This document shows positions 61 to 8,660 of a stretch of DNA of 8,835 nucleotides, piece by piece. Numbering within the stretch: the first letter of the stretch is position 1; every line of letters starts with the position of its first letter. The position numbers and the translations under genes are program-made. This DNA comes from a virus (Duplodnaviria > Heunggongvirae > Uroviricota > Caudoviricetes): IMG/VR virus record IMGVR_UViG_2663763227_000005. One strand, given 5' to 3'. A model generated the notes under the pieces. It was not told the DNA's origin. It made no database searches and worked only from the letters and a program-made list of their open reading frames with translations.

Positions 61-675
61 TTGTTGACCACTTCAAACTTCCACGGAGTTGAGTTGGTGC
101 CCACCCGTGATATGCATGGTGTTTGGTTTACATCATCTAATATTGCATCTGCACTTAAATACGCAAATAGTCGTGCAGTAACAATGATTTATAACAAGTA
201 TAGCGATGAGTTTAGCGCCGGAATGACTCAGGTACTCGAAGTGAGTACCTCAGGAAATTATCGCAAAAAAGTGCGAGTTTTCTCACTACGCGGTGCCCAC
301 CTAATCGCGATGTTTGCTCGCACTCCGGTAGCCAAAGAGTTCCGCCGCTGGGTGCTGGATATTTTGGATCGGCAGGCAGAATGCTCACCGATTGCAAAAC
401 AGTTTACTGACGAAGAACTGGTTAATCTCTGCTACTTACAATTGTGGATGGAGAAGAGTCAACAAATGTGCAAACACATCTACCCAGGAATGAAGCAAAT
501 TGGTTCTGAGCTTTCAGGAAGGATTTACGATATTGCATATGAGACTCGCTACATGTCAGAAGAAACCAAGAAATCACTTCTTCGTGAAATGAAGAATCTT
601 GATACCAACAATTTTGTCGTAAAGAACGCTCAGCCAATGCTGGCAAAACTTCGCGGCGAGGAATGGATTCATTGA
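61..675 (+). CDS. Bro-N domain phage protein (antirepressor-like, DNA-binding). Start uncertain: TTG at 61 or 64, with an in-frame ATG only at 112.
   Basis: N-terminal pattern FHGVELVPTRDMHGVWFTSSNIASALKY ... VFSLRGAHLIAMFARTPVAKEFRRWVLDIL fits the Bro-N signature (F.F.G..IR...GEPWFVAKDVA..LGY ... LINESGLYSLI..S..P.AK.FK.WV) as I remember it. An in-frame stop at 43-45 bounds the ORF. A GGTGG SD-like sequence lies 7 nt upstream of TTG 61. Confidence 0.65.
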   Translation: MLTTSNFHGVELVPTRDMHGVWFTSSNIASALKYANSRAVTMIYNKYSDEFSAGMTQVLEVSTSGNYRKKVRVFSLRGAHLIAMFARTPVAKEFRRWVLDILDRQAECSPIAKQFTDEELVNLCYLQLWMEKSQQMCKHIYPGMKQIGSELSGRIYDIAYETRYMSEETKKSLLREMKNLDTNNFVVKNAQPMLAKLRGEEWIH

Positions 676-763: not shown

Positions 764-1492
764 ATGACTTTTAAGAATGTAGCAAACATCGGATCCGTTG
801 TCACGGATAAAACCATTGATAGCCAGTACCTGTTAGAGATGGTCAATCATGCTCGTAGACAGTGCGGGGAAAAAGAAGTCCGAAATAACGACTTTATTGC
901 ACGCATTAAGGATGAACTTGAAGGTGAGCACTACGAAATTTTCGTAGTTCAAAAATCAAACAAGACAACTTCTGAAAAAGTTGTTATGTCAATTAAGCAA
1001 GCCCTTCGAGTGGCTGCTCGTGAATCTAAAGCTGTTCGCCGCTCACTTGTAGACCAACTTGAAAGTATGCAAGAAGCGCACATTAAAAGCGGTAAATCGT
1101 CGAGTGGACTTGTTGAGTATCGCCAGGCGCGAACATTGAAAATGACGGTTGAAGCTGTTACCAATCTGTTCGATTTGATGCCAAATCTTGCGCCGGAAGC
1201 AAAGCAGACTGCGGCAGCAAGCATAATCAACCCGATAGTTGGTTTTAATGCAATACCTCTTCCGGCAATAGAAGAGCATTACTACTCAGCAGGGGAGGTT
1301 GCAGAGCAGCTTGGAGTAACGGCCAACAAGATTGGTCGCATTGCTAACGCAAACAACCTCAAAACTGAGCAGTACGGGAAGTTCTTCCTGGATAAATCTG
1401 CGCATTCCAGCAAACAGGTGGAAGCATTCCGCTACAATGCGGAAGGTGTTAAAGCTCTACAACACCTGATTCATGGGAGTAATGTTGCATAA
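764..1492 (+). CDS. Phage protein of unknown function, possibly regulatory. The C-terminal segment YYSAGEVAEQLGVTANKIGRIANANNLKTEQYGKFF looks like an HTH-type DNA-binding motif seen in antirepressor C-terminal domains. An alternative GTG start at 713 is less likely.
   Basis: Long ORF with AAGGA SD (752-756) 7 nt upstream of ATG 764. The GTG at 713 falls inside the loop of a hairpin (705-725). Domain assignment is by remembered pattern only. Confidence 0.6.
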   Translation: MTFKNVANIGSVVTDKTIDSQYLLEMVNHARRQCGEKEVRNNDFIARIKDELEGEHYEIFVVQKSNKTTSEKVVMSIKQALRVAARESKAVRRSLVDQLESMQEAHIKSGKSSSGLVEYRQARTLKMTVEAVTNLFDLMPNLAPEAKQTAAASIINPIVGFNAIPLPAIEEHYYSAGEVAEQLGVTANKIGRIANANNLKTEQYGKFFLDKSAHSSKQVEAFRYNAEGVKALQHLIHGSNVA

Positions 1493-1713
1493 TGGCAAAG
1501 AAAAAATATGGCATTATGCCGCCAAGAATCAAAGGAAGAGCCAGGGTAAAAGGCGATGCTGGGAGGTATCACATTCTTGGAGTTCTGTGGCATGAGAGAG
1601 CTTTAATTTTAAGTAGACCTCATGGGTACATTGAAAAGGTATCTATAGATAGAGTAGAGATTCTTCCCCTTACACCTGAAGAAGAAGAAACGTACGGACT
1701 TTTTGATAACTAA
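1492..1713 (+). CDS. Hypothetical small basic protein (73 aa), translationally coupled to the upstream ORF.
   Basis: ATG 1492-1494 overlaps the TAA stop (1490-1492) of the previous ORF (TAATG). It ends just before an intrinsic terminator. No recognisable family. Confidence 0.45.
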   Translation: MAKKKYGIMPPRIKGRARVKGDAGRYHILGVLWHERALILSRPHGYIEKVSIDRVEILPLTPEEEETYGLFDN

Positions 1714-1769: not shown

Positions 1770-2306
1770 TCAAACAACCCACCAGTTTGCCTGATTGGAT
1801 ACCAGCCTTGCAGTTTTTATGGAATTAATTATGCCATGCTCAAGAGCCTTGTTAGCATCCAAAATGGTCGAGTCTGCTATCAGGGATGCCCACCTAATAT
1901 GGGTTCCGATGTCGATATTGAACGTCTCAACGAAGCGATCAAGATCGTTATCGAGGCATTTCCCGTACTCTCTCAATCTGGCATGGTCGGCGGCTGGGGA
2001 GGCAAAGCACCATAATAGAGGATGTAACAGGAATCTTGATAATGGGTTTGCGAAACGTTCTGAGCCAGCCAGGAAAACGATATTAGCTATGGATTCAACA
2101 TTGCTTATGTTGTGAGTTCTAACGGTAACAGGGAGTGACTTAAGAAAGTTATACGCAGTAAAGCCAGCGGCAGTTTCCCCTCCCTGACTTGATATATGGA
2201 TATTTAATTCAGTTGCGCCTTGAGATAATGCGGTGAGACAGTGGTTCTGAAGTTGCCCAACAGTGGCAGTGTTAACGGGGCATAAGAAATGAATTGTGTG
2301 CAGCAT
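1770..2306 (-). CDS. ClpP-fold (Clp/crotonase superfamily) serine protease, minimal core of 178 aa, in the sieA position of the immI region.
   Basis: Aligns by eye to the E. coli ClpP core: ISSQGGETAAG vs INSPGGVITAG; VESIANIVFLAG vs AASMGAFLLTAG (catalytic Ser aligned); RFLLHP vs RVMIHQP (catalytic His aligned); ANKALEHGIINSI vs APEAVEYGLVDSIL. The ATG overlaps the mnt stop (TAATG on the minus strand), with AAGGA 9 nt upstream. Confidence 0.8.
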   Translation of the reverse strand: MLHTIHFLCPVNTATVGQLQNHCLTALSQGATELNIHISSQGGETAAGFTAYNFLKSLPVTVRTHNISNVESIANIVFLAGSERFANPLSRFLLHPLLWCFASPAADHARLREYGKCLDNDLDRFVETFNIDIGTHIRWASLIADSTILDANKALEHGIINSIKTARLVSNQANWWVV

Positions 2307-2554
2307 TATTTTTCATCCTTACCATACATGGTCTTTAGCGTCTCAAGCAGCGCCTCTTTGAATTTGTCAGCTTCTTGCTGAGCAAATGACTCAACTGACT
2401 TTGGCGACCTATCTTCATCAATCGCGGCTTGCAAAATCATGACGATCTCGGAGTTAACAGAGCGACCATTTTTTGATGCTCTGACAGCAAGAGCCTCGCG
2501 TAAAGATTCAGGGATTCTTACCGTAGTTGGAGAAATTGACACACCCTTTGCCAT
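2306..2554 (-). CDS. mnt: Mnt-like ribbon-helix-helix maintenance repressor (82 aa).
   Basis: GRSVNSEIVMILQAAI matches P22 Mnt GRSMNSELLQIVQDAL as recalled. Size is right (P22 Mnt is about 83 aa). It is divergent from arc-ant as in P22. AAGGTG SD lies 4 nt upstream of the ATG. Confidence 0.8.
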   Translation of the reverse strand: MAKGVSISPTTVRIPESLREALAVRASKNGRSVNSEIVMILQAAIDEDRSPKSVESFAQQEADKFKEALLETLKTMYGKDEK

Positions 2555-2668
2555 ATCACACCTTTGGTATTCAATTTGATAGCAAAGTGTATGCAGAAAA
2601 ATTTTGACTAGATATACTCACTTTGCTATCTTTTGTATTCGAAAAGAGTTGTTTGTGTGGAGGGTAAC
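2555..2668. promoter_or_regulatory. Divergent immI promoter/operator region between mnt and arc. Candidate Pant is -35 TTGACT (2604-2609), 17-bp spacer, -10 TATCTT (2627-2632). A perfect 12-bp inverted repeat GATAGCAAAGTG (2578-2589) / CACTTTGCTATC (2619-2630) brackets the -35 and overlaps the -10.
   Basis: Read directly from the sequence. The arrangement is analogous to P22 Pant/Pmnt with Arc and Mnt operators, though the operator sequences differ from the P22 ones I remember. Pmnt could not be placed confidently. Confidence 0.5.
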
Positions 2669-2821
2669 ATGGAGAAAGAAATAAGTAAGATTTTGGTAAG
2701 GATGCCGCAGTCGTTAAAGGATGCTATAGGTAGCAGGGCAAAGGAAGAGTGCAGGTCGTTTAACTCAGAGGTTATCAAGCGCCTGATAGACAGCTTGAAG
2801 AGAGAGGGGGTAATGGTATGA
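2669..2821 (+). CDS. arc: Arc-like ribbon-helix-helix repressor (50 aa from ATG 2669). The track ORF starts at TTG 2633, but the ATG with a GGAGGG SD is preferred.
   Basis: ILVRMPQSLKDAI...CRSFNSEVIKRLIDSLKREG matches P22 Arc ...RWPREVLDLV...GRSVNSEIYQRVMESFKKEG in pattern. GGAGGG (2658-2663) lies 5 nt upstream of ATG 2669. Confidence 0.75.
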   Translation: MEKEISKILVRMPQSLKDAIGSRAKEECRSFNSEVIKRLIDSLKREGVMV

Positions 2822-3021
2822 GTAAAGAATGTTGTTTCTGCGGCATTAGCGAATCAGACGCTGATCAAACATACATTTACTCTAAAGAAACAGGTCGGAT
2901 GCTGTGTAGTGACTGCGTGTTGGACATCATAAGATACAAGCATCTTGGATGTTCTGCCAGCATTAGCAATATAGGTGAAGTATATGAAGGGAAAGATATA
3001 ACTGATAGATCAGAAAGTTGA
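2818..3021 (+). CDS. Small CxxC...CxxC zinc-ribbon protein (67 aa) inserted between arc and ant; function unknown.
   Basis: Cys5-x2-Cys8 and Cys30-x2-Cys33 spacing. The ATG overlaps the arc stop (ATGA at 2818-2821). No equivalent gene lies between arc and ant in P22 as I recall it. Confidence 0.5.
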   Translation: MSKECCFCGISESDADQTYIYSKETGRMLCSDCVLDIIRYKHLGCSASISNIGEVYEGKDITDRSES

Positions 3022-3083
3022 AGCCCCAACTGCGGGAACAGTCAGGGCTTCGGTATCAACAAATCGTCTTAGGAAATATTGAC
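3013..3083 (-). ncRNA. sar: Candidate sar-like antisense RNA (about 70 nt), complementary to the ant ribosome-binding site and start codon.
   Basis: Leftward promoter: -35 TTGATA (plus-strand 3113-3118), 17-bp spacer, extended -10 TGcTATACT (plus-strand 3090-3098). Predicted TSS is near 3083. A compound hairpin AAGCCC-ca-ACTG-cgggaa-CAGT-ca-GGGCTT (3021-3050) is followed on the minus strand by CAACUUUCUG. The predicted length matches the roughly 68-69 nt P22 sar RNA (from memory). Confidence 0.4.
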
Positions 3084-4013
3084 ATGAAAAGTATAGCAAC
3101 AGCAGTATCTACTATCAATGTGCCATTCCACGGCGCAGAGCTTTATGTTGTCAATCACAACGGCGAACCGTACACCCCAATGAAACCTATCGTTGAGGGA
3201 ATGGGCATGACTTGGCAGTCTCAACACCGCAAGTTGATGGAGAGATTTAAGACCTGCATCATCGAAATGATGATTCAGCTCCCCGGCGATACTCAGCGTC
3301 GTCTGGTTATCTGTCTTGCTTTACGCAAACTTGCAGGTTGGCTGCAAACCATCAGCCCTAACAAAGTCCGCCCTGAAATCCGCGACAAGGTAATCCAGTA
3401 TCAGGAAGAGTGTGACGATGTACTCTACGAGTACTGGACTAAAGGCCATGTAGTTAACCCACGCAAAGCTAAAAAAGCGTTGCCGGGTAAAATCACCACT
3501 GAACAGCAGGAAGCCATTAAACAACTCGTCATGAGTCGCGGTCAGTCTCTGCCAAAAGAAAAACAGGCGAAGGCAATGATTACCATGTGGTCGTCACTGA
3601 AATCCCATTTTGGATGTTCGTACAAAGAAATCAGTGAGGAGCAGTTTACAGAAGCACTGTCACTTGCAGCTCGAGTTCCACTTGAAGGTGAGTTCATTGG
3701 CAAACAAGAGAAGAAAACCAACGAGCTTTCTGCAAAAGAAGCAAACAGCCTTGTATGGTTATGGGATTATGCCAACCGCTCACAGGCATTATTCCGCGAA
3801 CTGTATCCGGCGCTAAAACAAATTCAATCGAACTATTCCGGCAGATGTCATGACTGCGGTTATGAGTTCTCCCGTATTATCGATATGGCGAGAGATGTTT
3901 TAATCAACCATACACGAGATATTGATATTAATGAGCCAGACGGACCAACGAATCTTTCCGCATGGATGAGACTTAAGAATAAAGAATTACCTCCTTCAGT
4001 ACATAACTACTGA
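3084..4013 (+). CDS. ant: Ant antirepressor (P22 Ant-type N-terminal domain), 310 aa from ATG 3084. The track ORF starts at TTG 3018, which would run through the hairpin.
   Basis: VPFHGAELYVVNHNGEPYTPMKPIVEGMGMTWQSQHRKLMERF resembles the P22 antirepressor N-terminal domain pattern. AGGAAA (3071-3076) lies 7 nt upstream of ATG 3084. The position after arc and before the tailspike is as in P22. Confidence 0.85.
   Translation: MKSIATAVSTINVPFHGAELYVVNHNGEPYTPMKPIVEGMGMTWQSQHRKLMERFKTCIIEMMIQLPGDTQRRLVICLALRKLAGWLQTISPNKVRPEIRDKVIQYQEECDDVLYEYWTKGHVVNPRKAKKALPGKITTEQQEAIKQLVMSRGQSLPKEKQAKAMITMWSSLKSHFGCSYKEISEEQFTEALSLAARVPLEGEFIGKQEKKTNELSAKEANSLVWLWDYANRSQALFRELYPALKQIQSNYSGRCHDCGYEFSRIIDMARDVLINHTRDIDINEPDGPTNLSAWMRLKNKELPPSVHNY
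3090..3118 (-). promoter_or_regulatory. Psar-like leftward sigma70 promoter inside the 5' end of ant.
   Basis: Minus-strand TTGATA - 17 bp - TGcTATACT, a near-consensus extended -10 promoter, read directly from the sequence. Confidence 0.45.
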
Positions 4014-4113: not shown

Positions 4114-6801
4114 ATGACAGATATTACAGCCAATGTGATCGTATCGATGCCTTCGCAACTCTTCACTATGGCTCGTTCTTTTAAAGCCGTAGCCAATGGC
4201 AAAATTTATATCGGTAAAATTGACACTGACCCGGTAAATCCTGAAAACCAGATTCAGGTTTATGTGGAGAACGAAGACGGCTCTCACGTTCCTGTTTCGC
4301 AACCAATAATCATTAACGCTGCTGGATATCCGGTATATAACGGGCAGATTGCCAAATTCGTTACCGTGCAAGGTCATTCTATGGCTGTTTATGATGCATA
4401 TGGTGCGCAGCAGTTCTATTTTCCTAATGTGCTGAAGTATGACCCTGATCAGTCATTGAAATATGTAGAAGGGGCATTGCTTGTTACTGACTTAGGTAAT
4501 GGGACGTTTAAGAATAGTAGAAAAGACGTTGCCATTGGGGATAATCTAACAGGAACCAATTTTATTAGAATAAACGGCGGCGTCTATAAATGCACTCCAG
4601 TTGCAACTGGAATTGTTACTGAGATCAAACATAGATACATTATCGCAGGCGGGGTTAAAAGCTACCTGTCTCATATTTCCAGGCATGTCAGTGGTACGCG
4701 TAGGCCGCTGAACTGGAAATTAGAATTCAGCATCATAGACGATGAGATTACCGCAGATCTTAAAGATCAGTATGGTTACACGACCATGGGATTTCAGGGG
4801 ATTTACATAGACAGCAATGATGGAATGGTATACATCGGCTGGCAGACGCTAGACCCCGCATCGGTATGGGTTACGGTGCATGACTGGGTAACAGGAGCAT
4901 TGGTAACACGTCTTCATTTTCCGAATAACGTTGGTGCACCAGAAGGCATCCACGTTTACCGAGTGGCAGGACAGCGTTACATCCTGCTGCCGTACAGCCC
5001 ATCTCGCACTATCAGAATTTACCCTATCGAAGATCCGCGTACGCTGGTTGATAAAACGCAGATTACAAACTTCACTGAATCAACACGCCTTGGAGTGCGA
5101 TATCAGTTTAGTGGCTTTGGTAATACCCTGATATACGAAAATGCGGATATGGGTTGGCCGAAAATTTTTGATGTTGAGACAGGTGTATCCAATATCTTTA
5201 ACACACTGGATATTAACAGCCTTATAGAAGGATCTTACAGTCCAATGGGGACTATTACGGTTGATGCAAATGTTGGAGGTCGCGGAGCCGGTAAACCAAA
5301 ACGGCAGGGTGTCGCTCTTGGTTCTCAACGGATATTTGCTGGTATTGGTGCATCTACCACGGCGGGATCTGGAAATACTTTCGCAGGGTTGCAGGGTTAT
5401 ATTGAGTACAGCCTTAATGGTTCAGAATTAGGTCAGTACCTGCTGTCACCTGCAGATTTCAAAACATACTGGGATAGTTATTCAGGGAAGAGTGTTTACT
5501 CCACTGAAAATGAGGGGGTGCAGTCTTGTGATATTTCTGGCTCTGAGGAATTGTATCTTCTACAGTCTATTCGCTATGACAATGGGGGCGGATCAAATTA
5601 TAGGACTTTAAACATCATTCGCGCTAACTGTCCATCTAATGAACCTGGAACAGTAGACATGACTCCGCTATCCAATGCCTCCTCACAGTTATTTAACCCT
5701 CGCGGAAGGGTGATTAACGCTGGCCGTCACCCTGTGAACCCGGCTGATGGTATTGCGCTATTTACATCGGCACAGGCTATTTGTGACTATTTGCGGAATA
5801 CAGATGCAGGTAGATATGTGACATATCTTGAACAGGATATGCCACTGTTTGAAGGTGGGCCATCTGCGCCAGGACAGATGACGCTGCCAGCATTCTGCCT
5901 ATTGCAGATCGACTTCATCAACGGCGATACCTGGGAAATTACAGTTAATGGAACTAACAGGGCTAATAATTATACAGGAAGGATTTCCAAAAACGGCGGG
6001 TACAACTCTTTTACTAAGGTGTCCTCCCGCAGCATGTCGATTCTCGGATCCCCTGGTCTGGTTGATGTATCAATTCGCTCACCTAACTCACTAAATCTTC
6101 CAGAATTTGCTGGAGACTGGTCTACTGGTGTAAGTATAGGAGCTGCAGGTGGGGTGACAAACTGGCAGCCAGAAGGAACAGGTAACGGAGCATTATGGGA
6201 GTCAGGATATGCAAAAAACCGTGTGTTGCAGATATTCATGTCCACAACATCAAAACTGTTCTTCCGCTACGCAGACGATGCTATTCGCGCAGGTAACACA
6301 GGCTGGGCTGAGGCATGGTCGTCGCTGAACACGACCGTCGATTCAAGTGGTTTCATCAAAAAAGCCTCTCCGGTTGTGAAGATTTTCTCAGACGGTAGTA
6401 GTGAAACAAATCGCGAATCAGATGGGGTAACCGTCACACGGCTGGCATTGGGTGAATATCTGATTGAGGGTTGCGTAGGTCTGAATGCAGATGCTTCATG
6501 GGGGGGGATTGATGGTGGATTTGAAATACCGCAGGACCGAAACAAGCAGCCGCTCATCTGGCTGGATTATGTTGTTAACCAAGATGGATCTGTGTTGGTG
6601 AAAACGTTTCACCGCACTCATGATAACTCGCCCGTTTTTGCACGTAACGACATCCCTGGTGTTTCGAACGGTGACCCGATCGACATTCCTGCTAATCAAT
6701 TCGTTTCTGTGCGAGTACAGATGCCTGAGGATTCTGCATGGAATAAGCTTAAGGAACAACTAAATAAGGCTGAATTGATAGAAGATGATGTTGTGGAATA
6801 G
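4114..6801 (+). CDS. Tailspike protein (895 aa). The N-terminal roughly 113 aa is a P22 gp9-type head-binding domain; the remaining roughly 780 aa is a divergent receptor-binding or depolymerase module of unknown specificity.
   Basis: [71 protein letters not shown]...[13 protein letters not shown]...NVLKYDPDQ is near-identical in pattern to the P22 gp9 N-terminus ([59 protein letters not shown]...VLKYDPDQ). Similarity is lost after YDPDQ. GGAG (4102-4105) lies 8 nt upstream of the ATG. Confidence 0.9.
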
Positions 6802-7487: not shown

Positions 7488-8660
7488 TTGCTGTTGAAAC
7501 GCCGTCTTATTATTGCTGCTTCTTTGTTCGTTTTTAATTTATCGTCTGGTTTTGCGGCGGAAAACATTCCTTTTTCACCTCAACCTCCAGAGATTCATGC
7601 CGGGTCCTGGGTATTGATGGATTACACCACCGGTCAGATTCTCACCGCGGGTAATGAGCATCAACAGCGCAATCCCGCCAGCCTGACAAAGCTGATGACG
7701 GGCTATGTCGTGGATCGCGCTATCGATAGTCATCGCATTACGCCAGACGATATTGTCACCGTGGGGCGTGATGCGTGGGCGAAAGATAATCCGGTGTTTG
7801 TCGGTTCTTCACTGATGTTTTTGAAAGAGGGCGATCGCGTATCGGTACGTGATTTAAGCCGTGGTTTAATTGTGGATTCCGGAAATGACGCTTGTGTTGC
7901 ACTGGCTGACTATATTGCCGGTGGGCAACGGCAGTTTGTTGAAATGATGAACAACTATGCCGAGAAGCTGCATCTCAAGGATACGCATTTTGAAACAGTG
8001 CATGGTCTGGATGCACCTGGCCAGCATAGCTCGGCTTATGATTTAGCTGTGCTTTCTCGCGCTATCATCCACGGCGAGCCCGAGTTTTATCATATGTACA
8101 GTGAGAAAAGCCTCACCTGGAACGGTATCACCCAGCAAAACCGTAACGGGTTATTGTGGGATAAAACCATGAATGTTGACGGCCTGAAAACGGGTCATAC
8201 TTCTGGTGCCGGGTTTAATCTCATTGCTTCGGCTGTAGATGGGCAGCGTCGTCTCATTGCAGTGGTAATGGGGGCTGACAGCGCAAAAGGTCGTGAGGAA
8301 GAGGCAAGAAAATTACTGCGTTGGGGTCAACAAAACTTTACTACGGTGCAAATTTTGCACCGTGGGAAAAAGGTTGGTACGGAACGCATCTGGTATGGCG
8401 ATAAAGAAAATATCGCCCTGGGAACGGAACAAGAGTTCTGGATGGTGCTACCGAAAGCCGAAATTCCACATATCAAAGCCAAATATACCCTTGATGGTAA
8501 AGAACTCACCGCGCCAATTAGCGCCCATCAGCGGGTAGGGGAAATTGAACTTTACGACCGTGATAAACAGGTGGCGCACTGGCCGCTGGTTACCCTGGAA
8601 TCTGTCGGGGAAGGCAGCATGTTTTCCCGGCTGAGTGATTATTTCCACCATAAGGACTGA
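7488..8660 (+). CDS. dacD: D-alanyl-D-alanine carboxypeptidase DacD (PBP6b), a host gene. It has a non-ATG start: TTG at 7488, or TTG at 7494 with better SD spacing.
   Basis: The protein matches E. coli DacD essentially along its full length as I remember it (signal peptide LIIAASLFVFNLSSGFA, SxxK motif in PASLTKLMT, SGN, KTG). GAGGG (7482-7486) lies upstream. Confidence 0.9.
   Translation: MLLKRRLIIAASLFVFNLSSGFAAENIPFSPQPPEIHAGSWVLMDYTTGQILTAGNEHQQRNPASLTKLMTGYVVDRAIDSHRITPDDIVTVGRDAWAKDNPVFVGSSLMFLKEGDRVSVRDLSRGLIVDSGNDACVALADYIAGGQRQFVEMMNNYAEKLHLKDTHFETVHGLDAPGQHSSAYDLAVLSRAIIHGEPEFYHMYSEKSLTWNGITQQNRNGLLWDKTMNVDGLKTGHTSGAGFNLIASAVDGQRRLIAVVMGADSAKGREEEARKLLRWGQQNFTTVQILHRGKKVGTERIWYGDKENIALGTEQEFWMVLPKAEIPHIKAKYTLDGKELTAPISAHQRVGEIELYDRDKQVAHWPLVTLESVGEGSMFSRLSDYFHHKD

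Follow-up and report, generated by a model that had tools for sequence, protein, structure and literature searches.

A conserved inverted repeat at the predicted Pant promoter of a variant P22-type immI module: putative operators for ribbon-helix-helix repressors

The Arc and Mnt repressors of phage P22 are textbook models of DNA reading by a β-sheet, and to our knowledge the operators that have been studied in this circuit are those of P22 alone. Our search of the literature found no characterization of the operators of non-P22 immI variants, and the ant moron has been described as very variable. The window considered here (i.e. the whole stretch of 8,835 nucleotides that was analyzed) is the right end of a P22-like prophage, and the 114-bp gap between its divergently oriented mnt-like and arc-like genes contains an inverted repeat. 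This raises the question of what the repeat is and, if it is a repressor binding site, which of the two ribbon-helix-helix proteins encoded on either side reads it.

An immI module with an inverted repeat at its predicted promoter

The features of the window are collected in Table 1. The genes have the order and strands found in the P22 immI region (mnt leftward; arc, sar and ant rightward), the tailspike gene is adjacent, and a strong predicted rightward promoter is located between mnt and arc, ahead of arc-ant; the presence of sar makes the module complete. The original prediction had named the two repressors as an Arc/Mnt pair, and this assignment is borne out by the match of both proteins to the Pfam family Arc, by their BLASTP identities to the P22 proteins (36% for the Mnt-like protein versus P22 Mnt, and 39% for the Arc-like protein versus P22 Arc), and by the sar and ant genes that follow downstream. 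The alignment of the Mnt-like protein with P22 Mnt extends into the C-terminal region, which in P22 Mnt forms the tetramer, and its best solved relative is 1MNT. For the Arc-like protein, the best solved relatives are Arc and then AmrZ (PDB 3QOQ). This module variant, or a close sister of it, is carried by about 400 of 5426 complete E. coli genomes, and it is also found in Klebsiella and Serratia.

Several observations concern the neighboring genes. In the related genome NZ_CP159170.1, the counterpart of the Bro-N/P22_AR_C gene sits after a gene for an S24 peptidase (repressor-like). In two class C loci (L299 and L300; the classes are described in Table 3), mnt is likewise directly backed by a ClpP-like gene. 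A homologue of the 67-aa ORF is named ClpX C4-type zinc finger protein in RefSeq, and the homologue in locus L298 matches the Pfam family zf-C4_ClpX. The sar RNA overlaps the end of this ORF and lies directly 5' of ant, the same as in P22.

Table 1. Features of the window, with positions counted from its first nucleotide.
Feature	Position	Strand	Description
Bro-N/P22_AR_C gene	61-675	+	Second antirepressor-like gene, 5' of the immI module
Two ORFs	713-1492, 1492-1713		Without Pfam match
ClpP-like protease subunit gene	1770-2306	-	Directly behind the mnt-like gene
mnt-like gene	2306-2554	-	82 aa; ribbon-helix-helix repressor; C-terminal region Mnt-like; N-terminal reading head MAKGVSISPTTVRIP
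Control block	2561-2640		80 bp; four sites and Pant
Site 1	2561-2572	+	CCTTTGGTATTC; third exact CTTTGNTAT core (2562-2570); within the mnt leader, with 5 nt between it and the left arm
Left arm (site 2)	2578-2589		GATAGCAAAGTG; minus strand reads CACTTTGCTATC; kept in Serratia, Klebsiella and metagenome relatives
A/T tract	2595-2603		AGAAAAATT; A7 in relatives; between left arm and -35; nearly invariant across classes A, B and C
Pant-like promoter	2604-2632	+	-35 TTGACT 2604-2609; 17-nt spacer; TG 2624-2625; -10 TATCTT 2627-2632
Right arm (site 3)	2619-2630		CACTTTGCTATC; last 8 nt of the Pant spacer, including TG, and first 4 nt of the -10
Site 4, weaker copy	2629-2640	+	TCTTTTGTATTC; abuts the right arm; over the -10 end and the expected Pant start
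arc-like gene	2669-2821	+	50 aa; Pfam Arc; N-terminal reading head MEKEISKILVRMP
ClpX zinc-finger-like ORF	2818-3021	+	67 aa; CCFCG...CSDC; between arc and ant
sar antisense RNA	3016-3082	-	Rfam RF00262; 73.4 bits versus a gathering score of 43
ant antirepressor gene	3084-4013	+	Output regulated by Pant; Pfam P22_AR_N and P22_AR_C
Tailspike gene	4114-6801		P22 head-binding domain (Head_binding)
Host D-alanyl-D-alanine carboxypeptidase gene	7488-8660		

The two arms of the repeat are complementary at 12 of 12 positions across a gap of 29 nt, and their starts are 41 bp apart, which corresponds to about four helical turns. The original prediction was exact in this respect, in sequence as well as in coordinates, and its description of the arms as bracketing the -35 element and overlapping the spacer and the -10 element agrees with the positions returned by our promoter scan. 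In that scan, which covered positions 2450-3100, TTGACT-17-TATCTT was the sole promoter-like site; the left arm ends 14 nt upstream of its -35 element, and Pant is predicted at the same place in all of the module variants and in P22. What the prediction did not contain is that the arms belong to an array, with further copies of their motif in site 1 and, more weakly, in site 4. The motif is about 9-12 bp long (CAC-TTTG-N-TAT-C), each arm holds one copy, and the arms are the two best copies of the core CTTTGNTAT. Three exact copies of this core lie within positions 2562-2629 and one elsewhere in the window, compared to 0.45 expected per whole window. The sequence of site 1 does not differ between E. 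coli, Klebsiella, Serratia and the metagenome locus L291, and in site 4 conservation across genera is limited to TGTATTC (2634-2640). Among 1000 dinucleotide-preserving shuffles of the whole 8.8-kb window, 2.4% contained a perfect 12-bp inverted repeat with a gap of 3-60 nt (mean of 0.031 per shuffle). A motif scan of a related 25-kb prophage revealed no further cluster of the motif, so the sites appear to form a local operator, and the idea that they belong to a wider regulon was rejected for this reason.

Two other elements are interspersed with the array. The A/T tract occupies the position that we take to be the one expected for a promoter UP element; at position 2596 the window has a G in this tract (AGAAAAA), and an A is found there in each of the other 24 haplotypes of class A. 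In addition, a direct repeat of GTATTC (2567-2572 and 2635-2640) is kept in E. coli, Klebsiella, Serratia and L291, the linkers next to it vary (2573-2577 and 2631-2633), and in the Serratia locus an inverted GAATAC follows the second GTATTC. The GTATTC pair may constitute separate sites, possibly for the other repressor.

Conservation and variation of the arms

To describe the variation of the region, about 150 related loci were gathered, the sources being E. coli genomes and collections of viral, metagenome and genome sequences. The 80-bp control block is 91-94% identical across the comparisons listed in Table 2, in which the flanking coding DNA is 67.5-85.6% identical.

Table 2. Nucleotide identity of the control block (2561-2640) and of its surroundings between pairs of loci.
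Comparison	Block	mnt	arc	Adjacent leader
Window vs Serratia marcescens	92.5%	73.9%	67.5%	53.6%
Window vs Klebsiella locus L290	91.2%	83.5%	85.6%	93.1%
Window vs metagenome locus L291	92.5%	77.1%	79.1%	77.4%
B2 loci L038 vs L298	93.8%	72.5%	69.3%	56.5%

Within class A, to which the window belongs, 25 haplotypes show six variable positions between 2558 and 2640, and the only ones that are not singletons are 2582 (G/T) and 2626 (C/A). These are mirror positions of the two arms, they are never compensated, and no haplotype that combines T with A occurs among the 25. Because of this variation, the arms match at 11 of 12 positions in most class A haplotypes, and the perfect match seen in the window is one allele among several. 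An uncompensated polymorphism at symmetric positions argues for protein binding and against a hairpin, and it fits a degenerate position of a protein site. A 12-bp palindrome present in the majority allele of the left arm (TTTGATATCAAA) was also considered; it is not conserved in L291 and is therefore probably incidental.

Between classes, the arms keep fixed offsets from the -35 element, and the distance between their starts does not vary among classes A, B and C, where they are mirror images of each other (8-12 of 12 positions) despite their differences in sequence. In an alignment of 19 haplotypes, 87.3% of the cells are complementary as compared to 74.6% in shuffles, a value that none of 500 shuffles reached, and five of the 12 arm positions have changed on both arms. 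When an arm was slid by 1-3 columns as a control, only 15-52% of the cells were complementary. Judged by these sequence comparisons, the repeat is not a chance occurrence but a real, conserved regulatory element.

The promoter core AGTGTA, the A-tract and TTGACT are common to several module variants, which are compared in Table 3. The original prediction had proposed that this repressor pair has a different operator specificity, and the comparison supports it, as the arms are kept in different genera, and sister variants with other repressor N-termini show coordinated changes in both arms. A search of genome contigs with the Arc-like protein returned a single locus, from Serratia, and a metagenome scan with the promoter-core pattern yielded no new class beyond B1' and B2'; the Arc of the L038 type is a singleton in the viral collection.

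Table 3. N-terminal reading heads and repeat arms in the classes of the module.
Class	Mnt head	Arc head	Arms (left / right)
A (this window)	MAKGVSISPTTVRIP	MEKEISKILVRMP	GATA(G/T)CAAAGTG / CACTTTG(C/A)TATC
B1, B1'	MTKVRDIAPYSVRMP	A Arc head, few substitutions	GATATCACAGTG / CAC(A/G)GTGATA.. or CACGATGATACA
B2 (L038, L298)	..VRDISPYGVRMP	..VVDCIVRM.	As in B
B2' (L207, L221)	B2 Mnt head	A-type Arc head	As in B
F (L295)	MTKIRDISPFSVRIS	A-type Arc head	GATATCAAATTG / CACAATGATACT
C	..RDI(S/A)PLGIRIP	Nearly the same as Mnt head	..CTACACAGTG / CACGGTGTAG..
G (L297)	..APYGVRMP	..PPVGIRMP	C-like

Three further observations concern the variants. In loci L040, L237 and L299 (class C) and L297 (class G), the reading residues of Arc and Mnt are almost the same (e.g. 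MKVRDIAPLGIRIP and MKGARDISPLGIRIP), and the motif CACnGTGTAG is repeated four times. Recombination joints are located at about window position 2738, inside arc, and at 2821, the arc end: in UTI89-type prophages arc is shared from about residue 24 onward (85-91% identity) and the N-terminus and control region differ, and many other E. coli prophages diverge directly 3' of arc. Finally, another Arc/Mnt-like pair is found beside ant or rha in lambdoid phages (L238 and L239; Stx-converting and PhiR5_1 phages). The intergenic region of these loci contains a dense set of TGGC(A/C)-type repeats that run in either direction (among them ATGGTGCCAT and AATGGTGGCAT), from which it seems that multi-copy operator arrays are general in such modules.

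Candidate readers of the arms

The P22 locus provides the closest reference for the repeat. The rightward promoters of the two loci coincide in place, and their spacers are identical at 11 of 17 positions. Compared with the P22 12-mer that is equally far from the -35 element, namely the right half of Oarc, the right arm is identical at 9 of 12 positions; of about 4780 12-mers taken from the 2.4-kb P22 locus on both strands, only two reach this joint-best score. The likeness is confined to this half, as the other arm, at a distance of 41 bp, is on the far side of the -35 element, unlike in Oarc. The contiguous 21-bp dyad of P22 Oarc, with inverted halves about 11 bp apart inside the Pant spacer, is absent from the window, where 3 of 10 pairs are symmetric about the P22 center. 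Similarly, the 17-bp perfect palindrome of Omnt just 3' of the Pant -10 element was not found; the window has TTGTATTCGAAAAG at this place, which contains no palindrome, and the arm is identical to the Omnt half CACGGTGGACCT at 5 of 12 positions. The window also differs from P22 in having about 28 extra bp on the mnt side, including the A-tract, in its sites, which are split to either side of the -35 element and accompanied by outer copies, and in the N-terminal reading heads of its repressors. The interpretation given in the original prediction is reasonable for the most part, but its statement that the repeat does not resemble the P22 operators has to be qualified with regard to the right arm, given the resemblance of this arm to the right half of Oarc.

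The repeat most likely consists of two sites for repressor binding, one over each promoter of the antirepressor switch. It exhibits the general properties of ribbon-helix-helix operators, namely repeated units at a promoter, extra conservation, and change together with the N-terminal residues of the repressors. Our tentative preference, which falls somewhat short of an even chance, is that the arms are putative operators for the ribbon-helix-helix repressors of this immI variant, with the Mnt-like protein as the likelier binder. From the sequence patterns described above we infer binding by a protein, which protein it is, its stoichiometry and the position of the mnt promoter, and the proposed arrangement is as follows. 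Each arm would be occupied by one repressor dimer. A repressor bound to the right arm, on the extended -10 element, would exclude RNA polymerase and thereby keep ant off in the lysogen, while the same protein bound to the left arm, on the presumed core of the leftward mnt promoter, would limit its own synthesis (negative autoregulation). The copies at 2561-2572 and, more weakly, at 2629-2640 could provide each dimer with a neighbor for cooperative or tetrameric binding; these outer copies, whose conserved part is GTATTC, may serve a tetramer as its partner site, or they may be bound by the other repressor.

No convincing leftward promoter was predicted, nor one consistent across classes, in a scan whose scoring recovers Pmnt of P22, and control of mnt from the left arm is for this reason proposed with reserve. 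Two weak leftward candidates, TGCTATCAA (2584 to 2576) and TACACT (2592 to 2587), both overlap the left arm. A Pmnt of the P22 type (TTGAGA-17-TATCAT overlapping Pant) is not conserved in the window, and it was rejected for this class, as the scoring finds it in P22 but not here.

The preference for the Mnt-like protein is based on how the arms vary with the reading heads. The CTTTG form of the motif, present in the arms and in site 1, occurs only with the Mnt head SPTT(V/I)RIP (in E. coli, Klebsiella and Serratia), whereas four further forms of the arms are found alongside the A-type Arc head. Moreover, between classes B2 and B2' the Arc head is swapped on an otherwise identical control region, and the arms are unchanged. 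In Mantel tests, Mnt-head identity was the better predictor of arm similarity (r 0.59, p 0.001, versus r 0.46, p 0.15 for Arc-head identity); such correlations are weak tests, given the small number and the relatedness of the classes and the physical linkage of the control region to both genes. The alignment of the Mnt-like protein with the tetramer-forming C-terminal region of P22 Mnt also speaks for Mnt. In addition, since the window has no P22-type Omnt palindrome 3' of the -10 element, Mnt needs another site on Pant. Against Mnt, a B-like Mnt strand is found in class G (L297) together with arms and an Arc head that are both C-like, and among the classes the Mnt and Arc assignments each meet one exception. 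Two more specific correspondences were rejected. Reading of the G at arm position 5 by Mnt Arg5 does not hold in class F (L295), which has Arg5 but T/A at this position, and the GATATA next to the -35 element (2611-2616) does not follow the Arc head, as the B2' loci (L207 and L221) carry an A-type Arc head with TAATATT.

A possible, though rather improbable, alternative is that the arms are sites of the Arc-like protein. Arc produced from Pant would then shut off Pant and Pmnt through one site each, and Mnt would bind elsewhere, e.g. at the GTATTC repeats. The identity of the right arm to the right half of P22 Oarc at the same -35 offset, together with that of the spacer, is consistent with this idea, and so is the core TGMTAY, which is found in both arms of classes A, F, B1, B1' and B2' and of the Serratia and Klebsiella loci, all of which have the same Arc head. 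The classes with a P-x-G-I-R Arc head (C and G) in turn have TGTAG or TGTAA arms. The joints of recombination are situated either behind Arc residue 23 or at the arc end, meaning that the Arc head travels with the control region, and in class G the C-like arms accompany the C-like Arc head and not the Mnt strand. However, class B2 (L038 and the diverged L298) has the head VVDCIVRM and yet the same arms as B2', and the TTTG arm form is specific to one Mnt head rather than to an Arc head. The positions identical to P22 are mostly bases of the promoter (the TAT of the -10 element) or of the operator center (CAC), and the TCTA box, which P22 Arc reads in the Arc-operator structure, is TTTG here; for these reasons, we gave the homology less weight than the head-to-site pattern. 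Furthermore, P22 Arc dimers bind well only with an adjacent dimer, whereas the arms are 41 bp apart.

It is unlikely that both repressors use the same or overlapping sites and differ in timing and oligomeric state. Such sharing is suggested by classes C and G, where the Arc and Mnt heads are almost the same and a single motif is present four times; one head common to both proteins makes shared sites possible, and the repressors of these classes probably do share them. In the window, on the other hand, the two heads differ (SPTTVRIP versus SKILVRMP). A special case of this reading is a Mnt-like tetramer that bridges the arms, for which the constant 41-bp spacing in classes A, B and C and the A/T tract between the arms can be adduced. 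The fixed spacing is, however, explicable by common descent and promoter geometry, and 41 bp is very short for a bend held by a protein. We regard as doubtful a split operator in which one Mnt-like tetramer would occupy both arms, on a single face of the helix at a distance of 41 bp, and would bend the segment containing the A-tract and the -35 element. If true, a single protein would shut two divergent promoters in this manner, unlike the compact 17-bp operator of P22 Mnt.

Two readings dispense with a phage repressor altogether. That the symmetry merely reflects two promoters placed back to back, each with a TGnTAT extended -10 element, or a site for a host factor is very unlikely: the TGCTAT in each arm does fit TGnTAn on its own strand, but these elements account for only 6 of the 12 positions, the leftward promoter fails the scan, and the arms differ between variants that all reside in E. 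coli, some of the changes weakening the -10 element, which makes either form of this reading improbable. The least credible reading is that the repeat acts as an RNA hairpin or DNA cruciform and not as a protein site, and it was rejected as the main function on the folding of both strands, Rfam and the polymorphism: although a 71-nt segment with the 12-bp stem folds at -16.2 kcal/mol (z -2.6) on one strand and at -16.6 kcal/mol (z -3.5) on the other and some positions are changed on both arms between classes, the -35 element of the sole predicted promoter is in the loop, so that Pant transcripts carry only part of the right arm and the arms do not share one transcript from the predicted Pant, compensatory maintenance is lacking in view of the uncompensated mismatch in most class A haplotypes, the arms of classes B and C are only 8-10 of 12 complementary, 12 of 19 sequences leave one position of the stem unpaired, and no Rfam family matches at the repeat.

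Related short-repeat operators and significance

Operators composed of short repeated units are known from other ribbon-helix-helix repressors. Reg576 of plasmid p576 binds units of 7-10 bp around promoters with one dimer each, neighboring dimers cooperate, strong promoters have more than one operator, and the units are direct heptamers whose starts are 9 bp apart (PMC6294495). The likeness to the window lies in the several short units around promoters; the window differs in that its two best copies have opposite orientations at a distance of 41 bp and its proteins belong to the Arc/Mnt type. The arrays of short repeats bound by the ribbon-helix-helix repressor omega of pSM19035 are a similar case. 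With regard to the reading head, AmrZ of Pseudomonas aeruginosa uses Lys18-Val20-Arg22 (PMC3325190), a pattern that equals Lys7-Leu9-Arg11 of the Arc-like protein, and the hydrophobic middle residue of the Arc-like head therefore has a precedent. AmrZ differs in reading GGC half sites, which are absent from the arms of the window, and in being a chromosomal regulator outside any immI module.

Taken as a whole, the repeat is most likely part of an uncharacterized version of a phage circuit that is itself well known, rather than an element of a new kind, and the known logic of the circuit is unchanged. What the variant contributes are natural matched sets of changes in reading heads and sites, as well as a layout in which the sites are split around the -35 element. 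If confirmed, it would supply new specificity pairs for the design of ribbon-helix-helix proteins, and it would aid in predicting prophage cross-immunity exerted via antirepressor switches.
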